64,000 nt of DNA, from the NCBI GenBank assembly GCA_012401045.1, contig GCA_012401045.1_4704.1, one strand, 5' to 3'. The position numbers and the translations under genes were made by a program. Under the pieces are notes generated by a model. It had not been told where the DNA came from. It saw nothing but the letters and a program-made list of their open reading frames with translations, and did no database searches. The number at the start of each line of letters is the position of its first letter. The stretch's first letter is position 1. The DNA is from a phage. Positions 9,601 to 39,436 of the stretch are shown piece after piece.

Positions 9601-9623
9601 ACGTAAGTAATATAGCCGTGAAA
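9601..9623 (-). promoter_or_regulatory. candidate phage early promoter, TATATTAC core on the minus strand
   Basis: One of four near-identical copies of a 23-nt motif, about 50 nt upstream of the ATG at 9558. Confidence 0.45.
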
Positions 9624-9702
9624 GGATTTGTGTTGGCCCGTTTCGATGCCCATCGTATTTTATGGATTGTCGAATGACGTCATTTTAAGGGACATCCCCG
9701 GC

Positions 9703-9731
9703 CTCCTCCCCAGGAAAGGTGTGGGGAGGAG
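9703..9731 (+). terminator. CTCCTCCCC/GGGGAGGAG hairpin followed by TTTTTA
   Basis: 9-bp perfect inverted repeat in a divergent intergenic region; overlaps the GTG start proposed by the ORF track. Confidence 0.35.
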
Positions 9732-9766
9732 TTTTTATCATACATTCTATTAAATCGAGCGCGATT

Positions 9767-11848
9767 ATGTTGGATAGAATCAATCGTCTAATGAACCGAA
9801 TAACGGTTAAAAATCAGAGTAACAATACCGTGCATATCGGGGGTATCGATGCCTGGCGTCTTTCAGATGACATTCAGCGAATATGGGGTACCTCCCGATT
9901 TACGAAACATATGTTTCGTAATTTCTCTTCTAGTGGACTCAGCCTCCACAACTTTTACCTCCCCGATTTCGTTTATATTCTCGAGACGATCATCGAAGCA
10001 AAGAATACCCGCAGTAACAAACGCATGCTGAAACACCTTATTGAGGTACTGCTACAGGAAACCTGGTTGCAAAATACCACAATCGAGCAACCTGCAATCC
10101 TCGATAAAGCACGCATGAACAAAATGCTAACGCTCTCTTTGTTCGATTATCAAGATGAGTTTATCGACATCTATAACCGTAACGTACCTAAATATCGACT
10201 GAAAGGATACGTGTGCGCGATGGGTGCCGGTGCGGGTAAAACGATCACCGCGTTGGCATTAAGCGCCGCAATGAACGTCGATGTATTTGTGGTCTGCTGT
10301 CCTAAGAACACGATGCGTTCAGCATGGCAATCCGATGTAAACAAAGCCATCGTTGACCCTGCAACAGAAACCGCGTTCTGGTCAGATACGATGCCACCAT
10401 CACAGCTGCAGAAAAGCGATAAGTACTATTTTCTGCATTACGAATCGATGGGTTTATTAAACGATGTAATGATCAAGCATAAACGCACCGCGAAGCGCGT
10501 GTTGATCGTGGTTGACGAAAGCCATAACTTCAACGACAAGAACAGCCAACGTTCCCAACGACTGGTTGATCTCGTACAGACGATGCGTCAGACCATGAAT
10601 GCGGATGTGCATGTCTTGTTTATGTCAGGTACGCCCGTTAAACAGATGGGTTCTGAGATGATCCCATGTTTAGGTTGTATCGACCCGATGTTCCAAGGAC
10701 AGGTGGTTGATAGCTTCAAAGCAATTTACGGTTTAACCAGCAGTCGCGCTAACGATATCCTCAGACATCGTCTTGGGTTCATGATGCATGTCGTACCTAA
10801 AGAAGCTTATCGTAAAACCCGGCCGGAAGTTCAGGATGTTTACGTGAAGCTCCCTAACGGTAGCGATTATACCATCTCAAGTATCCGCGACGACATGGCG
10901 ATATTTGTACGCGATCGGGCGAAGTATTACAAGGATAACTGGGGGCATTACAGAAAGATTTTTGATGACGCCTTGGACTACTATCGTAAGACTATTCGTA
11001 CCGACGGAGAACGTAAAGAGCTATCTCGATACGAATCGATTGTTGCTCGTTTCCAGAAAGGTTACGATCCCGTCAGAGACAAAGAAGATGCGATGTTCTG
11101 CAACACGTTTGAAAAACGTTCCATCATGCCGGTTCTTCCTTCTGATTTAAGAGTTGCTTTCAAAGACGCTAAGAGTGTCATCAAGTACGTTGGGTTGAAA
11201 ATTCAGGGTGAAGCGTTGGCACGTGTTCTAGGTGCAGCCCGCATTCAGTGTCATGTCGACATGGTGGAGTACATCGACTTCGAAGGGTACATCAACAACG
11301 CTGAAGCCAAAGTGTTGATCTTCACGTCGTACGTTCAGGTGGTTGAGCGCGTCGACAACCTGCTTCGCGATGCGGGTTTCTTACCTGAACCCATTTACGG
11401 GAAGACCAACAAAAACATCAACCAGATACTTGCTCGCTTACGGGACGATCCTGACAGCGGTCCCGCTATCGCAACATTTGATAGTTTAGCTGAAGGGGTT
11501 CCAATGTTGATGTGTAACGTGGGTCTCTTCTTGAACAATCCGTGGCGCTCATCCGATGAAATCCAGGCCATCAGCCGTCTCGACCGTGTAGGGCAAACAC
11601 AACCCGTTCGGATTTATCGTTTCATGTTAGATACAGGAAGCGAGGGTAACGTTTCTACACGCAGCCACGAAATCATGGAGTTAAGCCGACAGCTTGTTGA
11701 AGAAATCACGGGTGTCAAATACGTGGTGAACAAGCAAGACGATGTTAACTTGCAAGAAACGCTGGCGATGGAAGGATACGATCAATACGTTACCGTAAAC
11801 ACCACGGAATACGATATTAAACCACGACCTGCGTTCTTGGAATGGTGA
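9767..11848 (+). CDS. SNF2-family (SF2) helicase/ATPase
   Basis: DYQ, GAGAGKT Walker A, VVDESH, SGTP, and QAISRLDRVGQ motif VI; start moved from GTG 9719 to in-frame ATG 9767. Confidence 0.6.
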   Translation: MLDRINRLMNRITVKNQSNNTVHIGGIDAWRLSDDIQRIWGTSRFTKHMFRNFSSSGLSLHNFYLPDFVYILETIIEAKNTRSNKRMLKHLIEVLLQETWLQNTTIEQPAILDKARMNKMLTLSLFDYQDEFIDIYNRNVPKYRLKGYVCAMGAGAGKTITALALSAAMNVDVFVVCCPKNTMRSAWQSDVNKAIVDPATETAFWSDTMPPSQLQKSDKYYFLHYESMGLLNDVMIKHKRTAKRVLIVVDESHNFNDKNSQRSQRLVDLVQTMRQTMNADVHVLFMSGTPVKQMGSEMIPCLGCIDPMFQGQVVDSFKAIYGLTSSRANDILRHRLGFMMHVVPKEAYRKTRPEVQDVYVKLPNGSDYTISSIRDDMAIFVRDRAKYYKDNWGHYRKIFDDALDYYRKTIRTDGERKELSRYESIVARFQKGYDPVRDKEDAMFCNTFEKRSIMPVLPSDLRVAFKDAKSVIKYVGLKIQGEALARVLGAARIQCHVDMVEYIDFEGYINNAEAKVLIFTSYVQVVERVDNLLRDAGFLPEPIYGKTNKNINQILARLRDDPDSGPAIATFDSLAEGVPMLMCNVGLFLNNPWRSSDEIQAISRLDRVGQTQPVRIYRFMLDTGSEGNVSTRSHEIMELSRQLVEEITGVKYVVNKQDDVNLQETLAMEGYDQYVTVNTTEYDIKPRPAFLEW

Positions 11849-11947
11849 TTAAGAAGCTCTGCCTGACATCAGGCAGAGCTTTATGCTGTATTTGTTGCAA
11901 GATCGTATGACGTATATGCGTTGTACTTATTTAATAAGGCAGAATAA

Positions 11948-13402
11948 ATGAAACTTAAACAAAGCTGGAAAGACGAACTTCTCGCGTTAGTAAACAGCAA
12001 AAACAGTTTACAACTGACATTAGACGATGTAAAATTTGAACTAACGGCACCGGTAAGCGAAGTGCCTGGAACGGTCGTTGTTACAATCAAACCGAACGAT
12101 AATAGTCGCTACTTTAACGAGCAGTCTCTGACCTACATCCGTCGAGACATCGCTAAAAACTTCACTGGGATCCCGTTACGGGTCATCGTTAAAAAAGATA
12201 CCGCTGTAAGGGATATCATCAATACGATTGCTGAACGTTACGGATTGGTATTTGACACAGCCGTCGACTTCCTCGAATCCGAGCTGAATAAACAAATTAC
12301 GTTCGCAGACACCGGTATTAAAGACATTACGGTTCCGGTTGCAAACACGTCTTATGTTTGGGCGGGTAATCTTCAGTTCAATATTGCTAACGATACGTTA
12401 AGCTTGATTACTATCATCAAGAAAACCGATCTTACGAATCTGGTTTATCTGGATGGTGTTGAAGCTGACACATCTGGTTCGTTACTATTAGCAACCGCAG
12501 CACTTGTTAACGAACACGTAAATGAACCGATGGTTGAAAACGAAGATATCGTTAATGAATTTATTAACGTTCTTAATACTCTAGCCAAATATGGTGACAT
12601 AACCGGCGATGAATTAGATGCCGCCTTACAAGCGTACGATGAAGCAGAAAACAGGAATAAAACCACGGTAATAACTCTTGGTGATATCCAGTGTGTTGCA
12701 ACAGAAAAAGACGATTGGGAAATTGGACGTTTACGCGGTCAGATGGTTCTCGCGCTCAAATCCGATAAATACCCGGAGCCCGATAACACGTTCAGGTTGT
12801 TTACGAATGGTGGTGACGTATCGCTAACGTTAAACACAATGAAAGATATAAGTATCGATTGGGGTGATGGGAATAAAGTAACGTTGGATGCTGAAGAAAG
12901 ATACGCGCACCACACATACGCCGACAATAACCAGTACCAAATCGAAATTGTGTCTCGTACGGACCCAGATGTGCTGCGACCAAATTATATTTCTGGGAGT
13001 GAGATAACCGAAGTAATTCACTGGGCTACTACTTCAACAATAGCTCTGAATTTTGTTGGATGCGATAATTTAGCGACTGTTCCAGATGAGATCCCAACTT
13101 CGTGGACAACGTTGGACAGCATGTTTGAAAGTTGTACGAATTTGAATGATCCGTCTATCTCTAACTGGAATACAAGTAACATCACATCAATGAATGGTAT
13201 GTTCGGCGGATGCACTAAATTTAACCAACCTTTAGCTGCCTGGGATGTCAGCTCAGTAACTGACATTGGTGGTATGTTTAACGGATGCAACAGTTTTAAC
13301 CAAGATTTAAGTGGGTGGCGATTACCGTCAGGAGTAACCCACGACAATTACGATAGTGGTGCTTTCTCGTGGCAGACGGAACATAAACCGACGTTCCAGT
13401 AA
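11948..13402 (+). CDS. protein with C-terminal BspA-type repeats
   Basis: Repeats of the form MFxxCxxFNQxLxxWxVSxVTxMxxMF in the last ~100 residues. Confidence 0.5.
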   Translation: MKLKQSWKDELLALVNSKNSLQLTLDDVKFELTAPVSEVPGTVVVTIKPNDNSRYFNEQSLTYIRRDIAKNFTGIPLRVIVKKDTAVRDIINTIAERYGLVFDTAVDFLESELNKQITFADTGIKDITVPVANTSYVWAGNLQFNIANDTLSLITIIKKTDLTNLVYLDGVEADTSGSLLLATAALVNEHVNEPMVENEDIVNEFINVLNTLAKYGDITGDELDAALQAYDEAENRNKTTVITLGDIQCVATEKDDWEIGRLRGQMVLALKSDKYPEPDNTFRLFTNGGDVSLTLNTMKDISIDWGDGNKVTLDAEERYAHHTYADNNQYQIEIVSRTDPDVLRPNYISGSEITEVIHWATTSTIALNFVGCDNLATVPDEIPTSWTTLDSMFESCTNLNDPSISNWNTSNITSMNGMFGGCTKFNQPLAAWDVSSVTDIGGMFNGCNSFNQDLSGWRLPSGVTHDNYDSGAFSWQTEHKPTFQ

Positions 13403-13422
13403 AAAAAAAATAGTTAGCCTAT

Positions 13423-13455: not shown

Positions 13456-13473
13456 GTTTTATGGCGTTATGAC

Positions 13474-14770: not shown

Positions 14771-17032
14771 TTACAATTCAAAATCTTCATCGATAACACG
14801 CTGGGTAAGCACTTTGTCGCTGAAGAACTCCACCTTGCGCTGATGGTATTTACGGTGCGCTTCGATAGAAGTACATACCAGATACCAGAACGTTGGCGTC
14901 ATTCCTTCAAACTTTCCTTTCAGCTGACGCAGTCGCCCCAACACCTGAATGTTACCGGTTCGTGACCCCATCGCTAATGTCATGAACGTCATCACCAAGT
15001 CAGGAAGGTCGATACCTGTACCTGCCGATTTCACCGTTGTAACGCTAATATCGTTATCCAGCAAGACCATGAAATCTTCTTCAGCGGTATAAGGACCGAT
15101 CTCTAACTCAGGGATACGTTCACTGAGATAATGCGACAACGACTTACACATATCGACGGTTGCACAATACACCAGCATCTTCATACCTTCCTGATACTGG
15201 TTCATGAAACCCTTGATAATAACGGTATAGATGAAGTTAAAATACGCGAGTTTGAGTTGCTTGTTCTTCATGATAGACTGTTCGAATATCGTGTGTGAAT
15301 AAGCTCCACCAAACCCTTTGTATCTGACTTTATCTGTACTGCGTAGTCGGTACGTTACCGCATTTACCGCAATGTATTTCTTGTATTCGCCTTTCGCATA
15401 ACGAGCTTCTTTCGGATACATCAAATACAGCATCTGTTCGATAAACGGATCATCGGATACCGCTGTTGCCGACAGATAAATGATTTCCGGAATATTGGCG
15501 TAACACTTGACCTTAAACAAGAAATGCAATGCTTCGTGACACTCGTCATGAATCAGCAAACCTATGCCGGTCTTTTCCCAAAACTCAGCGGGATGAAAGG
15601 CATATGGCGCAACGCAGTTATTCTTCTCGTAGTCCGCAATATAACGTTGGAACATGTTCAAGGAGAACAATGCGATTTTAAAGTCGAGTTCACCTTGTTC
15701 AACCAAGGTTTGAAACTCCAACATACTGTAACGAGGAATGTCGGGATGCGGTGGATCCTCCTTAGCGTTCCCGCGTATCTCGATAACGTCCCCTGGTTCC
15801 ATCCCGAAGAAGTTCAGCAGTGAGCTTCGCCAACCTGGCATATACCGTGGAGAAAGTATAATGCCTGTGCGCACACCCCGTCTGAACACGATTTCCTGCG
15901 ACATCGCGGTGTTATGCGTGACGATGTGGTCTTTAATAACATAAAGGCTTTCGTCATTGTCCACCGTGATGCAACGTGCTTTCGCTTTCACTGTCGGTAC
16001 GATGCTATCAATCGCTAAACCAGGAAGCCGGTTAACGGGGAGATCGTCTGGAACCTCAATGTCGTCAGGAATAAGCTTACGCAAATCGGAATGATAAATT
16101 AATGTCTCCATCGTGTAACTATCGATGGGGCATTTATACGCGATTCCTCCTAACTGATAAGCCAACTCCCAAACCTTGGCCGTTATCTGCGAATCGACGG
16201 TTCTGACCGCAAGGTGAGCTTGCCCGTTTCTGATTCTCAGTTCACAGCGACCTTTGATTACCGCCTTAAATTCCTCGATACCGACGAGTTCTTTCGGTTC
16301 GTAAAGTCGGATTCTTATTGGACGAGATCGAGCAGGTCTGTCGTAAAGACATTCCATGATTTCGTCCGTGCTGAGAACCTTATCGGGGTCAGTACACCGC
16401 CAGAGATGATCGCCACACGCTTCAACCATCCTACCGTCTTCAAAGAAGATAGCATGAAGCTGAATATCGTCATGATCAAATATAGCGGTTACGTTCGTCG
16501 GTAACCCATCCGCACCAACAACCTGATCCCCTACCTGAAGCTCACCAATCGGCTTCCAACCTCCTGGAACCTTCACGGGTGTGGTAAGCCGTACCGCTTT
16601 CCCTGACCCCGTTTGAGCGGTGTTTAGGCTCATTCTGAAGGGGGTATCCTTACCCCCGTCCATGTACTCCAACCATTCTTGCTGATCTTCACGCCATGGA
16701 AACTTCCATTTCTTTACGAACTCCACTTCTTTACCTGGTACCGGATCGTGATAGACGATTTCCAACCACTCTTTTCGTATCCCTCGGGAAAAGATAAAAT
16801 CCAAAAACGATTTCAACTGTTCACGGAGTAAGTATACCTCGCTATAATCGCTTCTTGCCGCGGCATACGTGTTTATGGTATCGGTAACCATTCTCCGTGT
16901 ACGAGGGTCACGCCGTTTCCTCAGATGCAAACAACGGTCTCGAAGGTAATGGCCGATAAGATGGGCAAATCGAAGTCCGTATCCGCTCAGCCTCATGCCA
17001 TGCGAGAAGACGTCGATACGAGCTAACTTCAT
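14771..17032 (-). CDS. SF2 DExH-box helicase whose P-loop is interrupted by an intein
   Basis: AQTGSGK then intein then T (restores Walker A); LIHDECHE Walker B; QVLGRLRQ motif VI; start ATG overlaps the TGA of the upstream gene. Confidence 0.6.
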   Translation of the reverse strand: MKLARIDVFSHGMRLSGYGLRFAHLIGHYLRDRCLHLRKRRDPRTRRMVTDTINTYAAARSDYSEVYLLREQLKSFLDFIFSRGIRKEWLEIVYHDPVPGKEVEFVKKWKFPWREDQQEWLEYMDGGKDTPFRMSLNTAQTGSGKAVRLTTPVKVPGGWKPIGELQVGDQVVGADGLPTNVTAIFDHDDIQLHAIFFEDGRMVEACGDHLWRCTDPDKVLSTDEIMECLYDRPARSRPIRIRLYEPKELVGIEEFKAVIKGRCELRIRNGQAHLAVRTVDSQITAKVWELAYQLGGIAYKCPIDSYTMETLIYHSDLRKLIPDDIEVPDDLPVNRLPGLAIDSIVPTVKAKARCITVDNDESLYVIKDHIVTHNTAMSQEIVFRRGVRTGIILSPRYMPGWRSSLLNFFGMEPGDVIEIRGNAKEDPPHPDIPRYSMLEFQTLVEQGELDFKIALFSLNMFQRYIADYEKNNCVAPYAFHPAEFWEKTGIGLLIHDECHEALHFLFKVKCYANIPEIIYLSATAVSDDPFIEQMLYLMYPKEARYAKGEYKKYIAVNAVTYRLRSTDKVRYKGFGGAYSHTIFEQSIMKNKQLKLAYFNFIYTVIIKGFMNQYQEGMKMLVYCATVDMCKSLSHYLSERIPELEIGPYTAEEDFMVLLDNDISVTTVKSAGTGIDLPDLVMTFMTLAMGSRTGNIQVLGRLRQLKGKFEGMTPTFWYLVCTSIEAHRKYHQRKVEFFSDKVLTQRVIDEDFEL
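15911..16597 (-). mobile_element. intein, 229 aa, class-3-like (Ala1, Trp/Cys/Thr triplet)
   Basis: Hint blocks GWKPIGELQVGDQVVGADG, CITVDNDESLYVIKDHIVTHN then Thr; inserted between Lys and Thr of GSGKT. Confidence 0.6.
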
Positions 17033-19035: not shown

Positions 19036-19180
19036 TATTGCTTTCCGATTTAAATGGTTTTATCATACGGTTTACCAAATCCGTTGGACTTTACTATCGT
19101 TGTGATAGCATCGGGAATCCCTTCCCTTAGGTTATGTAGGTGTTAATATATCTCCACTGCTGACCTTTATGTCGGCAGCA

Positions 19181-23692: not shown

Positions 23693-23723
23693 CATTTATG
23701 CCGTCGTTCGATGACTTAATACA

Positions 23724-25059: not shown

Positions 25060-26646
25060 TTAGAAGTTGCCTTTGGTAGTTACCGCATCCACCAGGTTAA
25101 ACAAATCAACGCTCAGCTTATACACCTCCTGCTGGCTACGGTTGAGCAGCGGGCTGTATGCAGATGGGTTGATGTTCGGCATGGTGTACGGAATCGGTGC
25201 AGAACCGTCAACGCTGATCTTGAACTGGCTGTCCAGGAACAGGTTAATCGCGCCGCTCACCATAACCGCATTCGGGTTGTTGCCCAACATGGAGGGTAGG
25301 ATATTGGTAATCATGTCAGAACGCATTTGTTCAGCAGCACGGTTACAATCGTATCCTTTAATGAACGGCACAGCGTCGGTAACCGCAACCGCCCACTGAC
25401 CAGGCATGATACCGAGTTCTGGGTGACCATGGTTGTCAGCAATGAAACGGAACGATTCCAACATGCGGTATGTCATCGCAGCAGGCATCATTGCAGCAAG
25501 CGATGAACAATACAGCGTTGGATAATCGATCACATCCCAGCTCTGGCTATCGGTCGGCATCCAACCAAACTCGGTGGTTGCTGATGTACCACGACGAGCT
25601 TCCACATACGGGAATAACGTTAAGACATCACGGATATGTTCACCGAACATCCGTTTCATGTCAGCCCAACTCAGGCTACCGCTGAAAGCGAATCCTTCAT
25701 CACGCATAATCGCACCGAATACCGGATGCGCAACCAGAGGTTCTTCACGAACAGCTTGAGCGGCTTCCACGTAAATATCCTCGTTCTCTGCGCTACCTGG
25801 ATGAGACCCGCTTTCGTACGTCTGACGAATAGCACCAACATTATCGAAGGCTTTTCTTAGATAAATGGTTGGGATGTTCGTATCGGCACTAGCGGGTTTG
25901 ATTTTCTCTGTTGCGAAACACATTGCCGCTTCCACACCACGGAAAACCGGTTCCGGTTGCGGTGGGTAGGATGTACGATGAACCACATCAGCGTAGGCGG
26001 GATCGAACTGTTGCATCACGTTCTGCATGGCTGGGTCCATGAACTGGTTATCAAAACCACCATTGCCTACCCAACGTGCTGTTGATGCATAGGTCAGCGT
26101 ATCCTGAACACGAGTACTGAACTGAACATCACGATTAACAGGGTCGTATGCGCCGGTCAACAGGTTCGTTGCGTCCATCGGGGTTGCACGAACGATTTGC
26201 TTACCGAACATATCCGTTGTGGTTGTTTCGGTTACCTGGATTACGTTCGTGAAGAAGAACACCAGTTCATTCGGCAGATCGATAGCACGCGTTGTAAACG
26301 CATCGAGGCTTACAGAATGGTCGGTGTATCCAGAAATGTAATGGACACGCTTGGTTCCTGGTGCGAGGGCCAAGGATTCTTCTACCGCCATCATGAAATG
26401 GAAACGGCGTGTGCCCCAACCATTCGCAATCTCCGAAACCCCCTCAGGTTCTGCAGACTGCTGCAACAAACCGGTTGCAAGCTTATTGATTGCTGATGGT
26501 GTTGTTGCCGTACCGAACCGCGTCGTGTTAATGAAGTCTTCGATGCTACGCATGCTATCTGCGTGGAATCGTAGTGGACGACGTTGTACGTTGTTGTACG
26601 GTGCGGTTTCAACCATCAGTATTTCACGAACATTCATCGGGATCAT
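25060..26646 (-). CDS. hypothetical protein (528 aa), possibly structural
   Basis: ORF track; no recognisable motif. Confidence 0.5.
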   Translation of the reverse strand: MIPMNVREILMVETAPYNNVQRRPLRFHADSMRSIEDFINTTRFGTATTPSAINKLATGLLQQSAEPEGVSEIANGWGTRRFHFMMAVEESLALAPGTKRVHYISGYTDHSVSLDAFTTRAIDLPNELVFFFTNVIQVTETTTTDMFGKQIVRATPMDATNLLTGAYDPVNRDVQFSTRVQDTLTYASTARWVGNGGFDNQFMDPAMQNVMQQFDPAYADVVHRTSYPPQPEPVFRGVEAAMCFATEKIKPASADTNIPTIYLRKAFDNVGAIRQTYESGSHPGSAENEDIYVEAAQAVREEPLVAHPVFGAIMRDEGFAFSGSLSWADMKRMFGEHIRDVLTLFPYVEARRGTSATTEFGWMPTDSQSWDVIDYPTLYCSSLAAMMPAAMTYRMLESFRFIADNHGHPELGIMPGQWAVAVTDAVPFIKGYDCNRAAEQMRSDMITNILPSMLGNNPNAVMVSGAINLFLDSQFKISVDGSAPIPYTMPNINPSAYSPLLNRSQQEVYKLSVDLFNLVDAVTTKGNF

Positions 26647-28235
26647 TTTATTTTTTTTCCTCTTAAATTTACTACGTGTTCATTTAATCGAACAACTAAT
26701 TGCACAAGCTGCTGACGGATATCTGCTGGACAAAGCATCAATCCTTTACGGTCAGCTGGGACTTTCTCAAGGATTTCCGGGCCTGCTGCTGAAACATCCC
26801 AGTCCCATTCACAAAACGCATCGGCCACCATGTTAATACCGACAACCGGTAAAGTTGTACGTTCATCTTCATACATGGCGTGTGGATACAATTTATTGAC
26901 AGTAATGATCTCCTGTGGTTTTAATTGGTGGATAATCTGATAAACATCGTCGCGTTTGACCTGGATACCTACGGTCAGCGCGGCCAGTTGAGGAAAACCC
27001 CAATGGTCTAACAAACAAGCTGCGATCGCTAACGCTTTTGCCTGATGCACGGCTTCAATCGGTGCCAGACTTCTCGCCGGAAGATGGCTATCAAGCAACC
27101 ATTGCGCCAGTGCTCGGCATCCGCGGTTGATTGGTTTTAACTCAACGGTGTCATCGTGTTTAGCGTACGTGTATCCGTCGTAACGTTTTGCGATACGCGC
27201 ATACATGTCTTCAACTTTACCGTAAGGTGCCGTTTCGTCGACGTCGTGCAACACACGTTCCATCTGGGTAAGATACGCAATGTCGAGAATGAGTACACGT
27301 GGTGAACGTTTATCTTTCACCATCAACGCATCAATCACGCCTTGACTGTCTTCATCTTGCGCATTCCCTCGCGGCGTTTTCTCGCGAATCGGTCCGCTGA
27401 AACGTCGTTCCGTACAAAGGTTATTCACATAGCTGAAGATCAGTGTTACTAGATGCGTACAACTCACTAACACCCCATCTTTAACGACAGGCTGTACAGC
27501 TTGGTCCAAGTCGCGTACGGCGAGACGGCGGACGATGGCTTGTGAACGCAACCAGCCGGGCACTTTCTCCGTCGACATGTAATCCACGGTCATCGACAGC
27601 GTGATCTTTTTATCACCCGTCTGTGCGCGGATATAGTCTTCCAGTCGGTCGTAAGCGGCGATATCATGAATGCGTGTTTTATACATCAACGACATAGCCA
27701 CTTCTTCTTTACGAACCGTTCCGTACGTTTTCCCTGCGTCAATCAGAAACTCTGCCCAAATCGGCACCATCAGACGGACGTAGATCGCTAACGCCGTTAA
27801 CTCAACGTAATCATTTCGTAAATAGGTTTTCTCAGGTATGTCATCCTCACCTAATGTTGTTTTCATGTCCGGTGGTAATTTTACCCAACCTGGGGTATTA
27901 CACAATGCCAGAATCTCTTCGTACACAACCGGTTTGTAAATTTCACCAACAGCGCGACTCAACTCCTCCATTTGTTGTTGTGGAGCAATGTAGTTATCCA
28001 TCGCTTCACGTGCTTTAACGAACCCTTCGAAGATGTCGTCAATTCGACGTGGGTTCTTTTGTTCTATCCAGGCGAGATACTTGTTAATCTCCCGCATCTG
28101 ATTGCTAGCCATATCCCCATCAATCTTGATGTAACCCTGACCTGAAAATTCCACAGTACGTCCATCACGGTGTTTGATGAGATAGTGATCCAGCTTTTCT
28201 TTTCCTTGCGTCGTAATGACGGGCACTATGTGCAT
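26643..28235 (-). CDS. hypothetical protein (about 530 aa)
   Basis: Start moved to ATG 28235 (MHIVPVITT, GAGG upstream), which sits about 60 nt below the promoter-like motif; track start was 28370. Confidence 0.5.
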   Translation of the reverse strand: MHIVPVITTQGKEKLDHYLIKHRDGRTVEFSGQGYIKIDGDMASNQMREINKYLAWIEQKNPRRIDDIFEGFVKAREAMDNYIAPQQQMEELSRAVGEIYKPVVYEEILALCNTPGWVKLPPDMKTTLGEDDIPEKTYLRNDYVELTALAIYVRLMVPIWAEFLIDAGKTYGTVRKEEVAMSLMYKTRIHDIAAYDRLEDYIRAQTGDKKITLSMTVDYMSTEKVPGWLRSQAIVRRLAVRDLDQAVQPVVKDGVLVSCTHLVTLIFSYVNNLCTERRFSGPIREKTPRGNAQDEDSQGVIDALMVKDKRSPRVLILDIAYLTQMERVLHDVDETAPYGKVEDMYARIAKRYDGYTYAKHDDTVELKPINRGCRALAQWLLDSHLPARSLAPIEAVHQAKALAIAACLLDHWGFPQLAALTVGIQVKRDDVYQIIHQLKPQEIITVNKLYPHAMYEDERTTLPVVGINMVADAFCEWDWDVSAAGPEILEKVPADRKGLMLCPADIRQQLVQLVVRLNEHVVNLRGKKIK

Positions 28236-28285
28236 AACAACCTCTTTTCGCGGTTCCCTGTTAAAACGTCTTCTGTGACGTCTAC

Positions 28286-28310
28286 CACAAAGGTAATATA
28301 AGCGTGAATA
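28286..28310 (-). promoter_or_regulatory. candidate phage early promoter, TATATTAC core on the minus strand
   Basis: CACAAAGGTAATATAAGCGTGAATA on plus strand; second copy of the conserved motif. Confidence 0.45.
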
Positions 28311-28439
28311 ATTTTGGATTCCGGCTGAGTTATCGCTCAGCATGCAAGGCATCCCGCCGAAGCGAGACACCTTGCACTAACGGAAAATATTCGCGTTACC
28401 TTCTGAATCGAAGACTCAGAATGCGATGCTAAAGCATGA

Positions 28440-29231: not shown

Positions 29232-29304
29232 TTTCAGCCTCGTTACGTAGTGTGAATCAATTTCTGGTTCAGATGATAGTTAATATTAGTTAAAAATTAC
29301 AGCC

Positions 29305-32434: not shown

Positions 32435-32447
32435 GAGGAACTCCTCT

Positions 32448-32897: not shown

Positions 32898-33015
32898 TCC
32901 GTTCTCCTCAAGCTTTTCATTTCATAGAGTGGTGGAAATTCGTAGAAAGTTACAAAAATAAAAAAGAATGGGCAGCCCCTCCCCACCCGAAGGTAGGGAG
33001 AGACCGCAAATATAC

Positions 33016-33480: not shown

Positions 33481-33566
33481 TTTACTATCCTCGGATTTCG
33501 TTAGGATTTAATTTCCAATATAAGGGCAATGTGATATGCCTTATACAGTCGATTGATGTTGTACAT

Positions 33567-33590
33567 CACTTAAGTAATATAGCCGTGAAA
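33567..33590 (-). promoter_or_regulatory. candidate phage early promoter, TATATTAC core on the minus strand
   Basis: CACTTAAGTAATATAGCCGTGAAA on plus strand; about 95 nt upstream of the ATG at 33480. Confidence 0.45.
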
Positions 33591-33599
33591 AATGTTGGA

Positions 33600-34436
33600 T
33601 TAACGTGTTCTCCTATCACGATGCGTATACGACTGAAGACCGATGTCCATATGCGGTAACGTCAGCGTCTGCCAGATCTGTCGTGCGTAACGATCGAGCG
33701 TATGATCATCAGTAACACAATCGACGGGTTCGATGAGGTGAGTCGTATACTGGCTTTTCTCAGAGAAAGGTTCGATGTTAGCTGTATCGCCTAATCCGCT
33801 TTTCACCGTGAAGACAAGACGTGTGACGATCATCGCCTTATGCTGCTGTTCATTATAACGAAGGCTGCGGTATACGGCATAGCTTCCTCCTTTTAGGCTT
33901 CGGGTATAACGAAGGTCGGAGGTCGTCTCGGAAATCTGATACAGCATCCAGTCCAACGTATCACGCCAGTACGCATCATCCACATCAGGAACCGTAATAC
34001 CGTACCGCGTAGGCAGCAATTCTAAAAGCAATTTATAAAGTCCGCGACGTAAGCCATGCTCTTCTGTTTCCGATAAACCGTTTCCAACATAACGTGAAAT
34101 ACGCGTACGTAAATACGTACGGATGAACATATTCGCCATCAGTGTTTTCACTCTGCTACTGGTATCCTCAAAGCGATCAACGCTGAAACTCGTTTCAATC
34201 AGCCGTCCATTAAAATACAATGCAGCAACATACATCGCGTTATTACTATCACGTTCAATGTTTAAACGACCGCAGATATTAGCCGCATCGTTCATGGTAA
34301 ATTCTAATTTATCGTGTTCGATACGATAGATAATATCCTCTTGGGTTGCCAGGCTCGCAATGCGACGGTAGCCCGGAGAAGTACGTTTTACACTCATAAT
34401 TGTCCTCGTTTTCAATTTTAAGATTGCATGCGGCAT
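33600..34436 (-). CDS. hypothetical protein (278 aa)
   Basis: ORF track; GAGGA upstream of ATG. Confidence 0.45.
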   Translation of the reverse strand: MPHAILKLKTRTIMSVKRTSPGYRRIASLATQEDIIYRIEHDKLEFTMNDAANICGRLNIERDSNNAMYVAALYFNGRLIETSFSVDRFEDTSSRVKTLMANMFIRTYLRTRISRYVGNGLSETEEHGLRRGLYKLLLELLPTRYGITVPDVDDAYWRDTLDWMLYQISETTSDLRYTRSLKGGSYAVYRSLRYNEQQHKAMIVTRLVFTVKSGLGDTANIEPFSEKSQYTTHLIEPVDCVTDDHTLDRYARQIWQTLTLPHMDIGLQSYTHRDRRTR

Positions 34437-34439
34437 AAA

Positions 34440-34464
34440 CCCTCCCCGCCTTATGCAGGGAGGG
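34440..34464 (-). terminator. CCCTCCCC...GGGAGGG hairpin followed by TTTATG
   Basis: Between the stop of 34480..35118 and the start of 33600..34436. Confidence 0.4.
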
Positions 34465-34479
34465 TAGCCATTAAATGGA

Positions 34480-35118
34480 TTAACCTAATTTACCACCGGC
34501 GATGTTGGTGAAATCTTCGCCATCAGGAACTTGCAGTAGGATACGTGCCATGTCCCAGTTGGTTAATGTAATTGCTTTATCATCGATACTCAGTTCTGGT
34601 AGGTCGAGTTCATGATCATCAAACTCGTAGGAAATACTCCACGTTTCATCTGTTTTAGGATCGGTTATCAACACACCGTCTGTTACACGCATGTAGTCCG
34701 GGTGCAGTTCATTACTGAATGTGCTGAACGGATCGGTGTAACATTCAGCATATCCCTCGATCTGCTGACGCTGTGCCTTCGTACGTAATTCAGGGCACGC
34801 CATGATCAGTTGTCGAGATATACCGTTTGCGGCACGGAAGTCTTCCACGGTGTTACATGGCATAACCACATCGTCATGGAAGATGTTCTCCGATTGTCTC
34901 AACAGCGTCTTACGGAGTTCAGCATAGTTTATCTGATTGAATGCGTCGAACGTTGCTAACGATTCAGCGTAAAAATGCTTTACGTGTTCGCTTGCGCCGC
35001 CGAGGCTATTCATCAACTTGTGACCGTACTCCATGAAGCTTTTATCGAGACCGGAGGACATTTCTCCGAACCTCAGTGCACGATAACTGTCTCGTCCACC
35101 TGTAAATATTTGCGCCAT
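34480..35118 (-). CDS. hypothetical protein (212 aa)
   Basis: ORF track; AGGAGG 9 nt upstream of ATG 35118. Confidence 0.45.
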   Translation of the reverse strand: MAQIFTGGRDSYRALRFGEMSSGLDKSFMEYGHKLMNSLGGASEHVKHFYAESLATFDAFNQINYAELRKTLLRQSENIFHDDVVMPCNTVEDFRAANGISRQLIMACPELRTKAQRQQIEGYAECYTDPFSTFSNELHPDYMRVTDGVLITDPKTDETWSISYEFDDHELDLPELSIDDKAITLTNWDMARILLQVPDGEDFTNIAGGKLG

Positions 35119-35133
35119 TACAGGCGTCCTCCT

Positions 35134-35370
35134 TTAGCAATGGTTGTTAGTTGCTTCTATTTCATCAAGATACGGTTCTACGTCATCGCCCTCCACGAAT
35201 TCGTTGAACCAACAGTCAATGGTAGAAATAACCGGCGACTGGTGTTCACATTTCTTAGATACCTTAAAAGGTACGTTATTATCCATCATACCGAGTTCGG
35301 GTCGAAAACGCCCGAAATGTTTCGCAGTCCAAATGTCTGGGACGATATGGTTGTTCATCGTAGTGTTCAG
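35134..35370 (-). CDS. RNA polymerase beta-prime N-terminal subunit, distal exon or separately translated piece
   Basis: TTMNNHIVPD...ELGMMDNNVP aligns to E. coli beta-prime QMAVHVPL...ALMMSTNNIL, the segment that follows DFDGD; 5' boundary uncertain (35367, 35370 or 35379). Confidence 0.45.
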   Translation of the reverse strand: MNTTMNNHIVPDIWTAKHFGRFRPELGMMDNNVPFKVSKKCEHQSPVISTIDCWFNEFVEGDDVEPYLDEIEATNNHC

Positions 35371-35713
35371 CATGAGTCGCTACCTCATACCCGCAGCTTT
35401 ACCTGCAGCTTCCGGTGTTACCGGAATGTCCAGAATATATCTTATCCATATTCCAAATGGAACGTAGGACTTCCGCGCTGGATCTCGCTTGAGACCACGT
35501 ATTCGTTGAACGTTCTCCTGAACGGAGCTTCGCTGCTGATCGAACATTGTCACGTACGGTAGGCATCCCCGAAGGGATTGTCATTGAAGCCGCGTACATC
35601 CGCTACCTTGTTTCTACCTTATCGGTTCCTCTTACGAGGCGTAGCAGCCTTAGCCCTTCCCAGCAATTCACGGAATCCAAGCTCTTCCTTTCGGAAGGCA
35701 GGGCCTATGATTA
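35371..35713 (-). ncRNA. second group I-like intron or degenerate intron spacer
   Basis: Minus-strand Q-like ATCAGCAGCGAAGC (35527-35540), R-like GTTCAACGAATACG (35498-35511), S-like AAGATATATTC (35433-35443); GNRA and UUCG-capped hairpins; no P1 guide found. Confidence 0.4.
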
Positions 35714-35726
35714 AGCGTCACCGTCG
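35714..35726 (-). CDS. 13-nt micro-exon CGACGGTGACGCT supplying the DGD of the catalytic motif
   Basis: Joined to exon 1 it reads NADF-DGD-A; its first four bases are complementary to the GUCG that sits directly 5' of the intron-1 guide sequence. Confidence 0.45.
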
Positions 35727-36103
35727 CTGTTTATCGACTATATCTTCATCCTCGTTGCGAGGAGTCTCCCGTTTTGGTCTGTGTTTAACAGAGCCTACTC
35801 TACTCGACATCGCGTCTTTCGATAGTCTGTGAGCACACATCTTAACAAACATTCGTGGATTCCTAAACAGGTGAATGTTCTTGTTGAGATGCTTCGCTGC
35901 GGATTATTCCCGTCCTACCTCTTTTACCGTACCCAGTTCATTACGCTGGCCCTCATCTATGTCACCACGATGAGTTGGTGTGTAGTCCGATTACAGAAAC
36001 TTCCCGTCAATTAGAGAGCTTTAACTACGTTCCTGTTACCAGAAACCCGACTCCGACGGCATCAATAAATCAACATAAGTTATTGATTTAATTGAAAAAA
36101 CTG
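35727..36103 (-). ncRNA. group I self-splicing intron, 377 nt, no internal ORF
   Basis: Minus-strand P AATTGACGGGAAG (36000-36012), Q AATCCGCAGC (35896-35905), R CACAGACTA (35823-35831), S AAGATATAGTC (35736-35746); guide GAGUCGG (36047-36053) pairs exon end CCGACUU with terminal U-G; ends in G at 35727. Confidence 0.7.
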
Positions 36104-37359
36104 AAGTCGGCATTATAACCTTTGAGGATCATCACGCTTAACCCGATGGTGTTATCCTGCGGATCGCGTTTAACCTTGGTGATTTCAAGACATTGGTTAC
36201 TGCTTCGGTCAAGTGATGGGTTTCGAACAAAGCCGCACACAATCCCATCGAACGGTGTATCAGCAATAAGCTCATCGTGCAGCTCGCTCATCATCGGATG
36301 ATAATTACGGACATGTTCCGCAACGAACGCACGCGCTGCTCTCGGTGAATAACCACGATGGAATAACTTGGATTGGATATGTTCTTTATTGGTTAAAGTA
36401 AATGGTGCGTATGGGAAATGCAGATGATAATAACGATGGTTCGCTGTTATCGAACTGATTACGGTACGCGTGGTGAATGGATGTAATGTACCTAATATGT
36501 TTTTACGTGTAATACCTTTCTTCTTACCGATGAACTCATCGAAAATCGCCGCGTGGTATTGCAGTAGCTTCAATTGCACTTTCGCCATCCAGTTTTCTTT
36601 CTTTCTGGCGCTCAAAGGTGTTGTTGGATGATAGATACTGTTCAACGTACCGATAGCATCGATCGCACCTTCCATTTTGCTATCCGCATAACGACCGGTT
36701 GGCGTATTCTCGATAACGAACATCATGGCCGCAGGAAAGCTGATATACTGACTGAAGAACTTATCACGATGGATACGGATGAATTCTCGTAGCGTGTCAA
36801 CTTTCTCCGTGTTCTTCGGTCCACGTAACGTCGGTCCTTTATACAAGATCTCCATGATGCGATCGAAGTTCTGTATAAAACTATTTACACCGCGACGTAT
36901 CCCGAATACATCGAATTGCTGCTCCAGATAGTTCTTGAGTTCGATGGGTCGTTTTACATTTGGACGGTAACTGGCATCAATGAGCCACGTCATCGTTTCA
37001 AAGCTTTTGATATTCAACTCGCTTGCCAGCACGAGATGGACCAACGGGTTAATGAACGCATCGATTCCTTCAGGAACACGCGCCCAAACCGTCGAACGAA
37101 TCTCCTGTTCTGCCGGGTAGGTCACAACCGTTTTACAGTTTGGACACACCGTGCCGAGTAGCTCACCACGATTGTAGAAACCACAACCACACTGTGGTGT
37201 GATATCCAGCGTATCGCTGGAGTAAACACGGGTGATAAAACTGTTTAATTTCTTCTTCTCTTCGACGACTTTTGTATCGTAATCATTCAACAAAATCGGC
37301 GTAAAAGGAAGTTCTGCGAGCTGTCTATCGAAACTCACGATATCGAGCATGATGGCCAT
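36104..37359 (-). CDS. RNA polymerase beta-prime N-terminal subunit, exon 1
   Basis: N-terminal Zn ribbon QCGCG...CPNC; ends GYNADF matching E. coli AYNADFDGD; unspliced frame gives NADFSFFN then stop at 36088. Confidence 0.7.
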
Positions 37360-37401
37360 GGGGTATCTCCTACAAATGAAAAAGAACGTTAGGACGTATA
37401 A

Positions 37402-37425
37402 GGGAGGGAGGTTGCCCTCCCTCCC
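37402..37425 (-). terminator. GGGAGGGAGG-TTGC-CCTCCCTCCC hairpin followed by TTATACG on the coding strand
   Basis: 10-bp perfect inverted repeat between the 631-aa gene and the beta-prime gene. Confidence 0.4.
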
Positions 37426-37451
37426 GTCAGATTACATCGAACGTTCTTCCA

Positions 37452-39347
37452 TTAGAACAGATTGAATGCCCCACCCATGTTGTTAACGCCAACATTCGGA
37501 CGATCGCTACGTGCGTAGATGTTACCGGAGATGTTACCCAGACCACGAGCACGTGCTGCCATGTTACCACGAACAGCGGTACCTGCCAGATGCTGGATGT
37601 TCTCAGGACGGATGGTGAAGCCAGCATCAGCAGCGGCTTCGATCAGCGCCTGCAGTGCTAACGGATCGAAGTCGTAACGCATTGCCCAGCCGGTTTGTTC
37701 CCAGCTACCAGACAGAACACGATCGATGATTTCGTGACGAGCGACAACACGCTGAGACATCGTCATATCGGTACGGTCGAAGCTGTCTTCCCAAGCTTCT
37801 ACGGTATCCGGGTTAGTGATGTTCATCATGTACAGATCGTCCATATCACGAATATCGTGACGGTGACCATCCTGGTGGTTGTAGTGACCCAGCGGGATAC
37901 GGTTACCGGTAGCGTAGACCAGCGGTTGGCCGTATTGATATTTCTTGCTGAAGCAACCCAGGGTAACATCATCGAACGCACGGAAGAGGGCTTTGTAACC
38001 TTCGGAGATTTCACGGACTTCACCTTCAACTTTGCCCGTATAGATCTTCTCAGCCGCCGGGATCATACGCAGCAGCCAGCTGTACTCACCTTCTTCCGGT
38101 ACGTCGATAGAAATCAGCAGAGACGGATACAGTACCTGTTGCAGGAACTTGTAAATCTGCTCGTTGGTTTGAGTAGACAGATCCAGCGGTGCGGTAACTT
38201 CCGGATCCAGTACCATCGCCAGAGCACCCGGGTTATGCGGACCAATACCACGGGCAGCGTTGCTGATTAAAGACTGTGCCCACGCCATACCGCTGTTCAG
38301 CGTAGCGATGGTGCCAATCAGACCCAACACGAAAGTGTTCGGTGTGAACGCATCCAGCTCCAGCGGGTAAGCGCTGGTCATCACGTAACGCGGCTGGTAT
38401 TGTACAGTCGGCGGTACCGGATAACCGTTAACCAGAACAGGGCCTTGGTTGAAGGTCGGGTTCTGCGGGCTGTAAGTCAGGTCAATGTAACCGGTGGTGG
38501 CGACCAGACGCTGTTGACTATCGTAATCGCTCATCGCTTGACGGATGCGGTTAGAGATAGTTACAGTGATGTCAGAACGCACAGGGTTACCAACAATATC
38601 GCTGTCCTGCATACCGCTGGTGTTGTACTGAACGCTGCTGATTGGCTGATCGCTTGCCATCATGCCCAGGTTGAACTGCGGCAGACCCAGTTTATCACCG
38701 AGACGGATTTCGATCGCGGTTTGGATTGCGTTATCTGCAGCAGACAGCAGGGTGGTTGCCAGATGCGCAGATTCAGCGGTGATTTCATTGGTCACCACAG
38801 CCAGACCAGCGATACGAACAGTACCGTTAGACTTACCGCCAATAGCTGAGTACATTGCCGCCATGACTTCGTTGATGAACGTACCGTTCAGGTTATCAAC
38901 CCAGGTACGCGGTACCAGAATGTTACCATGCGGACCTTGTTCTTCACGACGCGGCAGCGGAGCCAGACCAGCAACCAGCGGAAGCACATAACCAAAGAAG
39001 TGGTTATGGTCACCAACTTTTGCACCACTCATAACGACCAGGGTCGGATACGGTACGCTGTACTGGTTCGGGTCAACCGCAACAAAGATGAAGTCGTTTT
39101 TGAACTGGGTATCTTCCAGATATTTCTCCATCAGACGACGGAGATTCAGTACCTGCTCGGAGCCAGTATTACGGCTAATACGACGGCTCAGTGTACGGTT
39201 GATCGTACGCATCGTATGAGTTACTTTAGGCTGGCCAGCAAAATCTGCAGCGGTTTCCAGCGCCTCATCAGCACGTTGTGCGGTGCGGGTTTCAGCTGCA
39301 CGAATTTCTACATTATCGTTACCGTTATTACGTACGTCTAAGCCCAT
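37452..39347 (-). CDS. candidate chimallin (phage nucleus shell protein), 631 aa
   Basis: Size matches chimallin; sits immediately upstream of the beta-prime N-terminal gene as phiKZ gp54 does; early-promoter-like motif upstream; not confirmed by sequence similarity. Confidence 0.45.
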   Translation of the reverse strand: MGLDVRNNGNDNVEIRAAETRTAQRADEALETAADFAGQPKVTHTMRTINRTLSRRISRNTGSEQVLNLRRLMEKYLEDTQFKNDFIFVAVDPNQYSVPYPTLVVMSGAKVGDHNHFFGYVLPLVAGLAPLPRREEQGPHGNILVPRTWVDNLNGTFINEVMAAMYSAIGGKSNGTVRIAGLAVVTNEITAESAHLATTLLSAADNAIQTAIEIRLGDKLGLPQFNLGMMASDQPISSVQYNTSGMQDSDIVGNPVRSDITVTISNRIRQAMSDYDSQQRLVATTGYIDLTYSPQNPTFNQGPVLVNGYPVPPTVQYQPRYVMTSAYPLELDAFTPNTFVLGLIGTIATLNSGMAWAQSLISNAARGIGPHNPGALAMVLDPEVTAPLDLSTQTNEQIYKFLQQVLYPSLLISIDVPEEGEYSWLLRMIPAAEKIYTGKVEGEVREISEGYKALFRAFDDVTLGCFSKKYQYGQPLVYATGNRIPLGHYNHQDGHRHDIRDMDDLYMMNITNPDTVEAWEDSFDRTDMTMSQRVVARHEIIDRVLSGSWEQTGWAMRYDFDPLALQALIEAAADAGFTIRPENIQHLAGTAVRGNMAARARGLGNISGNIYARSDRPNVGVNNMGGAFNLF

Positions 39348-39412
39348 TTGGGATTCCTCTTTTCTTAAACTTTATTAAATGACGTCATTGAATCAGCTTC
39401 TACTCGCTCATT

Positions 39413-39436
39413 CACCTAGGTAATATAACCCTGAAA
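39413..39436 (-). promoter_or_regulatory. candidate phage early promoter, TATATTAC core on the minus strand
   Basis: CACCTAGGTAATATAACCCTGAAA on plus strand; about 75 nt upstream of the ATG at 39347. Confidence 0.45.

Follow-up and report, generated by a model that had tools for sequence, protein, structure and literature searches.

Predicted phiKZ-type early promoters upstream of chimallin and other minus-strand genes in a Goslar-like jumbo phage

Early promoters of phiKZ and other jumbo phages

The early promoters of phage phiKZ have been the subject of several studies (Ceyssens et al. 2014; Wicke et al. 2021, PMC8244752; Putzeys et al. 2024, PMC10914365). The published consensus is tatattaaaaaaaatttaagatgTATATTACaaatgTG, ending in aaaaaaaatttaagatgTATATTACaaatgTG (PMC12676376, Table S1), and transcription is reported to begin 6 nt downstream of the element (PMC5312081). 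In the case of gp054, experiments have mapped a primary start site that carries the early motif (PMC8244752). The assignment of the phiKZ element to the virion RNA polymerase stems from the finding that early transcription is independent of the host polymerase and of new protein synthesis. Moreover, every jumbo phage encoding such polymerases is reported to carry a conserved AT-rich motif at approximately -10 upstream of its early operons, and this motif is assigned to the virion polymerase (PMC7598289).

The early promoters of phage 201phi2-1, of which only six have been mapped, are described as mirroring those of phiKZ, in that an AT-rich motif precedes the start by about 10 bp, with conservation at approximately -10, -20 and -30 (PMC11512511). 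In phage AR9, early promoters follow the pattern AAATATATATTAT-(6N)-G+1; transcription from them is early, requires no newly made protein and is attributed to a multisubunit polymerase that the phage injects (Lavysh et al. 2017, PMC5312081).

The phage and its RNA polymerases

The window, meaning the whole 64-kb stretch of DNA that was analysed, shares 95-98% identity with Escherichia phage Goslar, a nucleus-forming jumbo phage, and its gene order is collinear with phiKZ gp039-gp073. The source is a Goslar-like nucleus-forming jumbo phage of the Chimalliviridae, with E. coli as its host. Among the ORFs of the window are homologues of phiKZ gp055 and gp071/073, whose phiKZ counterparts are listed among the non-virion polymerase subunits, and a third RNA polymerase beta-like ORF at 17029-19035 (PHROG 'RNA polymerase beta subunit', E = 3e-169). 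The virion RNA polymerase set is encoded outside the window and is annotated in Goslar as gp078, gp196, gp205 and gp207, with the gp196 subunit entering the cell along with the DNA. Taken together, the window ORFs, the Goslar annotation and the injection of gp196 indicate that the phage possesses a multisubunit virion polymerase and a second, non-virion set.

Four motif copies upstream of minus-strand genes

The earlier note had listed four copies of a promoter-like motif upstream of minus-strand genes, and all four are present on the minus strand at the coordinates it gave. Their layout is an A-tract, the box TTTCAcGgc, the core TAYATTAC, a five-nucleotide spacer (N5) and TG. In each copy the core is TATATTAC, identical to that of the published phiKZ consensus, and the T and G at +6 and +7 past the core are present at 4/4 sites. 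A/T-rich regions lie upstream at approximately -20 and -30, in an arrangement that agrees with the phiKZ aaaaaaaattt.

The first site, P1 (9600..9636, minus strand), reads ccaacacaaatccTTTCACGGC-TATATTAC-ttacgTG, with its core at 9614-9607 and a predicted start G at 9600. It scores 42.8 bits in a matrix scan of the window in which the highest shuffled control reached 11.6 bits. The site lies in the divergent gap between a minus-strand gene at 8872-9558, where a Pfam match identifies an HD domain, and a plus-strand helicase gene at 9719-11848, and it heads a run of minus-strand genes reaching down to about 472. Its sequence is identical in Goslar and in the IMG/VR contig UViG_3300011560_000001.

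P2 (28286..28322, minus strand; 41.5 bits) reads ggaatccaaaattATTCACGCT-TATATTAC-ctttgTG, with its core at 28300-28293 and a predicted start G at 28286. Its target is the homologue of phiKZ gp068 (Goslar gp175), a 530-aa ORF on the minus strand at 26643..28235. The earlier note had proposed that this gene starts at ATG 28235 and not at GTG 28370, and the sequence comparisons support the move: the equivalent ATG is the annotated start of Goslar gp175, AAGAGG precedes it, and the product aligns over its full length with phiKZ gp068 in blastp (E = 1e-32, 534 columns of 530 and 521 aa) and matches PHROG 3209 (E = 4e-68). With the start at ATG 28235, P2 falls outside the coding sequence.

P3 (33567..33603, minus strand) has the highest score, at 51.6 bits, and reads ttaatccaacattTTTCACGGC-TATATTAC-ttaagTG, with its core at 33581-33574 and a predicted start G at 33567. 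It precedes a small ORF at 33016-33480 (Goslar gp182); past the end of this ORF is a strong terminator-like hairpin (33007-32972). When the window is compared with Goslar and two IMG/VR relatives, the only P3 motif positions with substitutions are in the N5 spacer (ttaag, ttacg, ctagg); a few further changes fall in the flanks. Close relatives are 97-100% identical, however, and motif conservation among them alone is too little to show selection.

P4 (39413..39449, minus strand; 44.6 bits) reads atattgaaaaaaaTTTCAGGGT-TATATTAC-ctaggTG, with its core at 39427-39420 and a predicted start G at 39413. It lies in a divergent gap shared with a plus-strand gene at 39602-40696, the homologue of phiKZ gp052, and is upstream of the minus-strand gene at 37452..39347. 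The latter had been put forward as a candidate chimallin (ChmA, the nuclear shell protein) gene, an identification borne out by its match to Pfam PF25677 (E = 2.8e-27), by the PHROG 'nuclear shell protein' and by 99% identity to Goslar ChmA. The sequence after the gene can be read as a hairpin, GGGAGGGAGGG-caac-CTCCCTCCC, at about 37423-37400. In Goslar, a chmA start site has been mapped from RNA-seq reads at 5 minutes post infection.

For sites P1-P4, the distances from core to start codon are 49, 58, 94 and 73 nt, such that the 50-95 nt first given for the motif holds when measured from the core; counted from the motif's downstream edge, where transcription is predicted to start, the distances become 42, 51, 87 and 66 nt.

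The window also has two weaker, variant copies, absent from the earlier list, that score above the shuffled controls. The first (19124..19160, minus strand; 18.4 bits) has the variant core TACATAAC at 19138-19131 and lies 96 nt upstream of the beta-like ORF 17029-19035, with a poor upstream half and no TG. The second (54074..54110, minus strand; 16.9 bits) reads TACATTAC-cttccTG, with its core at 54088-54081; ORF 53498-54049, 32 nt downstream, heads a run of minus-strand genes, and a plus-strand gene at 54155-55399 lies opposite. Here the core and TG are retained, matching TAYATTAC-N5-TG, but the upstream half is not. Both are weak promoter candidates.

Motif statistics in the window and in the Goslar genome

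The bare 8-mer TATATTAC is not enriched in the 64-kb window, where it occurs four times against 2.15 expected, a count reached in 14 of 100 shuffles. All four occurrences are nevertheless on the minus strand and within the four motif copies, every one of which is intergenic and directed at the next minus-strand gene. Longer versions of the motif stand well apart from expectation in the window: a 19-mer with up to three mismatches has 3 matches against 0.01 expected, TAYATTAC-N5-TG has 5 against 0.26 (a number reached by none of 100 shuffles), and a degenerate 24-nt motif has 4 against 0.22. Chance alone is insufficient to explain the copies of the extended motif.

A genome-wide motif search had been suggested as a check, and the motif matrix finds 12 sites in the complete Goslar genome that score 25-45 bits, far above a shuffle maximum of at most 18.7. 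Every one lies on the minus strand, co-oriented with the next gene, and 11 are intergenic, with coding sequence making up 93% of the genome; the remaining one lies inside an annotated 62-aa ORF. Similarly, 8 of the 10 Goslar copies of TATATTAC are intergenic, the non-coding share of the genome being only 7%. The T and G past the core are found at 12/12 strong sites, and TTT(C/G)A is found at approximately -23 to -19 in 11/12, with A-rich sequence further upstream.

Comparison with phiKZ and more distant phages

In the phiKZ genome, the element is found upstream of gp036, gp041.3, gp054 (chimallin), gp058.1 and gp068. Within a 41-kb phiKZ segment, all seven copies of TATATTAC are on the coding strand, and five have the full motif upstream of genes. 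The statement in the earlier note that early phiKZ promoters have an element resembling TATATTAC is correct, both by the published consensus (PMC12676376, Table S1) and by the copies in the phiKZ genome; this type of signal is already known from phiKZ.

The likeness between the two phages extends beyond the 8-nt core. In both, an A-tract and then TTT lie upstream of the core, a conserved TG follows 5 nt past it, and the sites are co-oriented with their downstream genes. Two gene positions are also shared: the sequence upstream of phiKZ gp068, TATATTAC-taacaTG, is at a position equivalent to P2, and that upstream of gp054, gaaaaaaatttgagattTATATTACtaaatTG, is at a position equivalent to P4. In the case of chimallin, the predicted 5' UTR, counted from sequence, is 66 nt in both genomes. 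There are differences, however. Between the T-tract and the core, the 6-9 bases read aAGATn in phiKZ but CAcGgc in the window, and Goslar additionally has the core variant TACATTAC, at 4 of its 12 strong sites. Between 28 and 32 sites are reported per 280 kb in phiKZ, as compared to 12 strong sites per 237 kb in Goslar. In addition, the phiKZ sites are mapped, in a Pseudomonas phage, whereas those described here are predicted from sequence in a phage of E. coli. P3 (gp182) differs in gene position from the nearest phiKZ site (gp058.1), and for the gp182 and gp159 sites no counterpart was demonstrated at matching gene positions in relatives.

Beyond phiKZ, TATATTAC-N5-TG is found upstream of chimallin in Erwinia phage RAY, Ralstonia phage RSL2 and Klebsiella phage Eowyn, and PhiPA3 has TATATCAC, with a one-mismatch core, at this position. 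The chimallins of these phages are only about 22-24% identical to that of the window. The T and G at +6 and +7 past the core are shared by phiKZ, RAY, RSL2 and Eowyn. The motif and its statistics, the orientation of the sites, their identity to the phiKZ consensus and the equivalent gene positions in other phages are direct observations.

By description, the 201phi2-1 promoters are similar to the window motif. The AR9 promoters are alike in having an extended AT-rich element that contains TATATTA and is centred near -10, with a G, in the window the predicted start, 6-7 nt downstream; they differ in that the element ends in T, not C, and has a longer 5' side. AR9 has very distant proteins and uracil-containing DNA, and forms no nucleus.

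Which polymerase reads the motif?

The motifs of the window are probably phiKZ-type early promoters for an injected virion RNA polymerase, a reading to which we assign a probability of roughly 0.88. It is the best-supported reading, given the core, the A-tract and TTT, the N5-TG spacing and the two gene positions that the window has in common with phiKZ, and it is the one that the earlier note had advanced. Which polymerase reads the motif, where exactly transcription starts and how early it does so are, however, inferred by homology.

It is very unlikely that the motifs instead serve the phage's non-virion RNA polymerase as middle or late promoters. Some genes of 201phi2-1 and phiKZ do have promoters of more than one class, as evidenced by phiKZ gp054 with its early and middle start sites. 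However, phiKZ late promoters are defined solely by a TATG overlapping the start, and middle promoters by a weak motif, AT-rich or TACT, at around -22 to -24, neither of which resembles TAYATTAC at -14 to -7, whereas the window motif agrees with the phiKZ early consensus in core and layout. In addition, P2 lies upstream of the homologue of phiKZ gp068, reportedly a subunit of the non-virion polymerase itself, and this gene must be expressed before that polymerase exists.

Slightly less probable still is recognition by E. coli RNA polymerase as host sigma-70 promoters, with TATATT serving as a -10 hexamer that is read straight after injection. TATATT does agree with the sigma-70 -10 element, TATAAT, at five of six positions, and the two have in common an AT-rich, hexamer-like sequence near -10, a position upstream of genes and a multisubunit RNA polymerase. 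Yet the window sites have no -35-like hexamer at 16-18 bp and no sigma-70-like spacing, the conserved TTTCAcGgc box instead abutting the core, and the invariant AC after TATATT and the fixed N5-TG would have no role at a sigma-70 promoter. A sigma-70 consensus scan of 28100-40000 reported none of the three sites located there (P2-P4), and sigma-70-like sites are depleted in this interval (9 versus 19.5 expected). Furthermore, the same motif occurs in phages of Pseudomonas, Erwinia, Ralstonia and Klebsiella, and phiKZ development is independent of host RNA polymerase.

The least probable explanation is a protein-binding operator or a DNA or RNA hairpin, formed by a TTCAC...GTGAA dyad flanking the core, or a dispersed repeat with no role in initiation: two Goslar copies do have perfectly complementary TTCAC and GTGAA arms across a 15-nt spacer, and the gp182 site is 97.6% identical over 42 nt to the one at Goslar gp004, as expected of a duplicated element, but only 43 of 60 arm positions pair over the 12 Goslar sites, where one arm differs (TTGAC, TTGAG, TTCAG, AACAG), its partner never carries a compensating change, the dyad is missing from the phiKZ, RAY and RSL2 versions, a stem of 5 bp closing a 15-nt loop would be unstable, and the 12/12 orientation and the cross-genus conservation at equal gene positions are consistent with a promoter but not with a selfish repeat.

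Proposed early expression from the predicted promoters

To our knowledge, in vitro recognition of the motif by a purified virion polymerase is known for no chimallivirus. In Goslar, RNA-seq finds 175 of 249 genes expressed by 5 minutes; 12 promoters seem few for this number, so that early transcription must also draw on other signals or on long read-through.

If the motifs are indeed promoters for the virion polymerase, a multisubunit enzyme that travels in the capsid and enters the cell with the DNA would recognise the AT-rich TAYATTAC at approximately -14 to -7, aided by the TTTCA box at approximately -23 to -19 and the A-tract at approximately -30 to -24. Transcription would then begin at the conserved G seven bases past the core, at 9600, 28286, 33567 and 39413 on the minus strand. 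The outcome would be host-independent expression, within minutes of infection, of a set comprising chimallin, the phiKZ gp068 homologue and the genes that follow it, the HD-domain operon and the small gene driven by P3.

Motif copies in the window and the genes behind them

At 95-98% identity, the window is a close relative of Escherichia phage vB_EcoM_Goslar (NC_048170), a nucleus-forming jumbo phage, and corresponds to positions 133,180-197,551 of the Goslar record with a few insertions and deletions. The four motif copies described in the earlier note are all present on the minus strand, where each is intergenic and oriented to the next minus-strand start codon. The copy at 9623-9600 (TTTCACGGC-TATATTAC-TTACGTG) precedes the start codon at 9558 of an HD-domain gene, and that at 28310-28286 (TATTCACGCT-TATATTAC-CTTTGTG) precedes the start codon at 28235 of the phiKZ gp068 homologue. 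The remaining two lie at 33590-33567 (TTTCACGGC-TATATTAC-TTAAGTG; gp182, start codon at 33480) and 39436-39413 (TTTCAGGGT-TATATTAC-CTAGGTG; chimallin, the nuclear shell protein, start codon at 39347).

These are the only four TATATTAC octamers in the window, a number that is unremarkable for the bare octamer (2.15 expected, with four or more in 14 of 100 shuffles). The extended motif, in contrast, exceeds chance, as evidenced by a 19-mer with up to three mismatches (3 found versus 0.01 expected), TAYATTAC-N5-TG (5 versus 0.26), and a 24-nt degenerate pattern (4 versus 0.22). With a 12-site matrix, the four copies are strong matches of 41-52 bits against a shuffle maximum of 11.6 bits. Two intermediate matches also exceed that maximum, one at 19131 (minus strand, core TACATAAC) upstream of an RNA polymerase beta-like gene, and the other at 54081 (minus strand, core TACATTAC) at the head of a minus-strand gene run.

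The candidate chimallin gene proved to be one, as ORF 37452-39347 matches Pfam PF25677 (E = 2.8e-27) and is 99% identical to Goslar ChmA. Moving the start of 26643..28370 to the ATG at 28235 agrees with the Goslar gp175 annotation and gives a full-length alignment to phiKZ gp068, with an AAGAGG ribosome-binding site 7 nt upstream. Gene order in the window follows that of phiKZ gp039-gp073; the common genes include PhuZ, DNA polymerase, gp052 (on the opposite strand), chimallin, a gp055 homologue, gp059, gp062, gp064-gp070, and a fused gp071/073.

The window and Goslar differ locally. A segment of ~683 bp (15915-16597, inside minus-strand ORF 14771-17032) is absent from Goslar and sits at the junction of gp164 (helicase, 524 aa) and gp165, creating an ORF of 753 aa in the window; an inserted domain, an intein, or a deletion in Goslar could explain it, and the entire ORF has no Pfam match at E <= 0.01. 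Conversely, at 35728-35731 the window lacks a 1,065-bp segment (Goslar 168216-169282) carrying the HNH homing endonuclease gene gp186. In Goslar this gene adjoins an annotated group I intron, close to the RNA polymerase gene that follows chimallin. The close relatives differ here in whether a mobile gene is present, and an Rfam scan of window 35000-37500 at the gathering threshold returned no intron family. Lastly, megablast finds no Goslar counterpart for 12496-13369, the 3' part of a leucine-rich-repeat (BspA-like) gene (11948-13402), with flanks that are both 92-95% identical; by this comparison the region appears to be locally hypervariable.

Distribution of the motif in the Goslar genome

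The genome-wide search suggested in the earlier note was run on Goslar (247 annotated coding sequences, 92.9% coding). TATATTAC occurs ten times, on the minus strand only; the extended motif accompanies the eight intergenic copies and is missing from the two inside genes. A 32-nt position matrix made from the eight intergenic sites scores these at 34-45 bits and finds four additional sites with a TACATTAC core at 25-34 bits, against a top score of 18.7 bits in shuffled genomes. Every one of the 12 sites is on the minus strand and oriented with the next gene, and 11 are intergenic, the lone exception lying inside an annotated 62-aa ORF. Predicted leaders measure 25 to 205 nt, with 66 nt for chmA and 51 nt for gp175, and the predicted 5' ends are at Goslar record positions 2553, 15053, 43252, 49718, 86691, 113783, 142786, 160777, 166055, 172964, 201930, and 226681 (minus strand). 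The consensus consists of an A-rich stretch, TTTCAcGnc, TAtATTAC, and cTnnnTGA. The two cores appear to be interchangeable, because one TACATTAC site reads TATATTAC in its homologue in an IMG/VR relative.

The motif is long and occurs in few copies. In an unsupervised 8-mer enrichment of Goslar intergenic DNA, TATATTAC, with only eight intergenic copies, ranked below poly-A/T, purine-rich 8-mers, and TATGCCGT. Footprinting with Goslar and two IMG/VR contigs was uninformative at 97-100% identity, the sole result being that, within the gp182 motif, it is the N5 spacer that carries the substitutions.

Goslar 2548-2589, the promoter region in front of gp004, matches the gp182 promoter region (window 33567-33608) over 42 nt at 97.6% identity (ttaatccaacatttttcacggcTATATTACttaagtga), a likeness that reaches well past the core motif. 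Moreover, the spacer variants of the gp182 site in four close relatives (ttaag, ttacg, and ctagg) are the spacers of other promoter copies. Together, these likenesses suggest that promoter copies were duplicated, or that sequence was exchanged between them.

Conservation upstream of chimallin

The resemblance to phiKZ early promoters that the earlier note had pointed out holds, as the core and layout are also found upstream of phiKZ genes. The published phiKZ consensus early promoter is tatattaaaaaaaatttaagatgTATATTACaaatgTG (PMC12676376, Table S1). A 41-kb segment of phiKZ has seven TATATTAC copies, every one of them on the coding strand, and five have the full layout, upstream of gp036, gp041.3, gp054 (chimallin), gp058.1, and gp068. 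The chimallin sites are strikingly alike, reading gaaaaaaatttgagatt-TATATTAC-taaatTG in phiKZ and gaaaaaaatttcagggt-TATATTAC-ctaggTG in the window, and a primary start site carrying the early motif is reported for phiKZ gp054 (PMC8244752). Similarly, the window site with its core at 28293 and a phiKZ site occupy the same gene position, upstream of gp068 or its homologue (E = 1e-32).

Chimallin is also preceded by TATATTAC-N5-TG in Erwinia phage RAY, Ralstonia phage RSL2, and Klebsiella phage Eowyn, and the PhiPA3 counterpart is TATATCAC. The element is thus kept in at least five genera, with Pseudomonas, Escherichia, Erwinia, Ralstonia, and Klebsiella as hosts. Given that the chimallin proteins of those phages are only ~22-24% identical to that of the window, retention of a non-coding element at this position indicates function. 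We place at roughly even odds (about 0.5) the broader reading that TATATTAC-N5-TG, with its upstream A-tract and TTT, is an essentially invariant virion polymerase promoter throughout the family, the cross-genus comparison being confined to sites upstream of chimallin. A standard review describes these motifs as 'different from phage to phage'; the near-invariance across genera is noteworthy, and may already be familiar to specialists.

An exact-pattern scan of IMG/VR for AAAATTT-N6-TATATTAC-N5-TG returned 67 stretches, several in contigs >200 kb; most others are in short contigs and possibly due to chance, and the matches were not counted as evidence. One 42-kb contig, UViG_3300004369_000909, carries at 1377 (plus strand) the exact Goslar-specific upstream box, core, and N5-TG (ttttcacggcTATATTACtgattTG). 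It has no obvious kinship to Goslar, and may come from a more distant Goslar-like phage.

Which polymerase reads the motif

Motifs of this class have been assigned to the virion RNA polymerase, since early phiKZ and AR9 transcripts are independent of host polymerase and of new protein synthesis (PMC7598289). AR9 early promoters take the form AAATATATATTAT-(6N)-G+1, and phiKZ transcription is said to begin 6 nt past the element (PMC5312081). By this spacing rule, +1 would be the invariant G of TG, which would place the core at -14 to -7, TTTCA at -23 to -19, and the A-tract at -30 to -24. Goslar injects gp196, a subunit of its virion polymerase, together with the DNA. Of 249 Goslar genes, 175 are expressed at 5 minutes, and a chmA start site has been read from the data of that time point. 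We infer the same polymerase, start site, and timing for the four exact positions in the window.

The sites could instead serve the non-virion polymerase; however, the known middle and late signals of phiKZ are both unlike the window motif, and one site precedes the homologue of phiKZ gp068, a protein reported to serve as promoter-recognition subunit of that very enzyme. The TTCAC/GTGAA dyad might be read as a hairpin or operator, a possibility we reject because no change in one arm is matched by a compensating change in its partner among the 12 Goslar sites, and the dyad is absent from other genera. Host sigma-70 promoters are also rejected, as a consensus scan of 28100-40000 detected none of the three sites there, there is no -35 element, and sigma-70-like sites are depleted in the scanned region. 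Early promoters of the virion polymerase, as proposed in the earlier note, are very probably the correct interpretation, and the class is already known. No motif or promoter annotation for Goslar was found in the GenBank record or the literature searched, and the bare string TATATTAC retrieved unrelated papers only.

Other intergenic signals

A second intergenic motif consists of a GC-rich hairpin, then TTT, then TATGCCGT. In the window, TATGCCGT is found at 42978-42985, 47026-47033, and 63544-63551 (minus strand), and at 23697-23704 (plus strand); for instance, ggcttcggctggatcggttcttttt-TATGCCGT lies ~60 nt upstream of the DNA polymerase gene. Twelve of 21 Goslar copies are intergenic, most of these directly 3' of a stem-loop. 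Because the motif includes TATG, the phiKZ late-promoter core, it could be a terminator, a non-virion polymerase promoter, or both back to back.

The purine-rich 8-mers (AGGGAAGG, GGGAAGGG, GAGGAGGG, and GGGAGAGG) are 85-100% intergenic in Goslar and, in the copies inspected, form the stems of terminator-like hairpins. One such hairpin directly follows chimallin (37400-37423, GGGAGGGAGGG-caac-CTCCCTCCC), and another, with a 16-bp stem, follows ORF 33016-33480 (32972-33007). Should transcription end at these hairpins, chimallin and gp182 would each be transcribed early as a single gene. A separate start site has been reported for the RNA polymerase gene that immediately follows chimallin (Armbruster et al.). 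The 92-nt gap upstream of this gene (37360-37451) holds the post-chimallin hairpin and no TAYATTAC, so the gene must use another signal, or its 5' end must arise by RNA processing.

Implications

Goslar is one of the main models used to study the phage nucleus, as well as the early-infection vesicle around the injected genome. The sites provide a predicted, sequence-based map of the earliest transcription starts in a Goslar-type E. coli jumbo phage, with exact predicted positions that can be checked against existing 5-minute RNA-seq. The map reveals no new mechanism; it corrects the start of one gene (28235), offers compact promoter parts with which to engineer Goslar, and identifies chimallin and the phiKZ gp068 homologue as predicted direct early targets, as in phiKZ. 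Should the invariance extend across whole genomes in every genus, the part of the virion polymerase that recognises promoters would be among the most conserved features of the family. In that case, the early gene set of any chimallivirus would be predictable from sequence, and a single early promoter could serve phages of different hosts.
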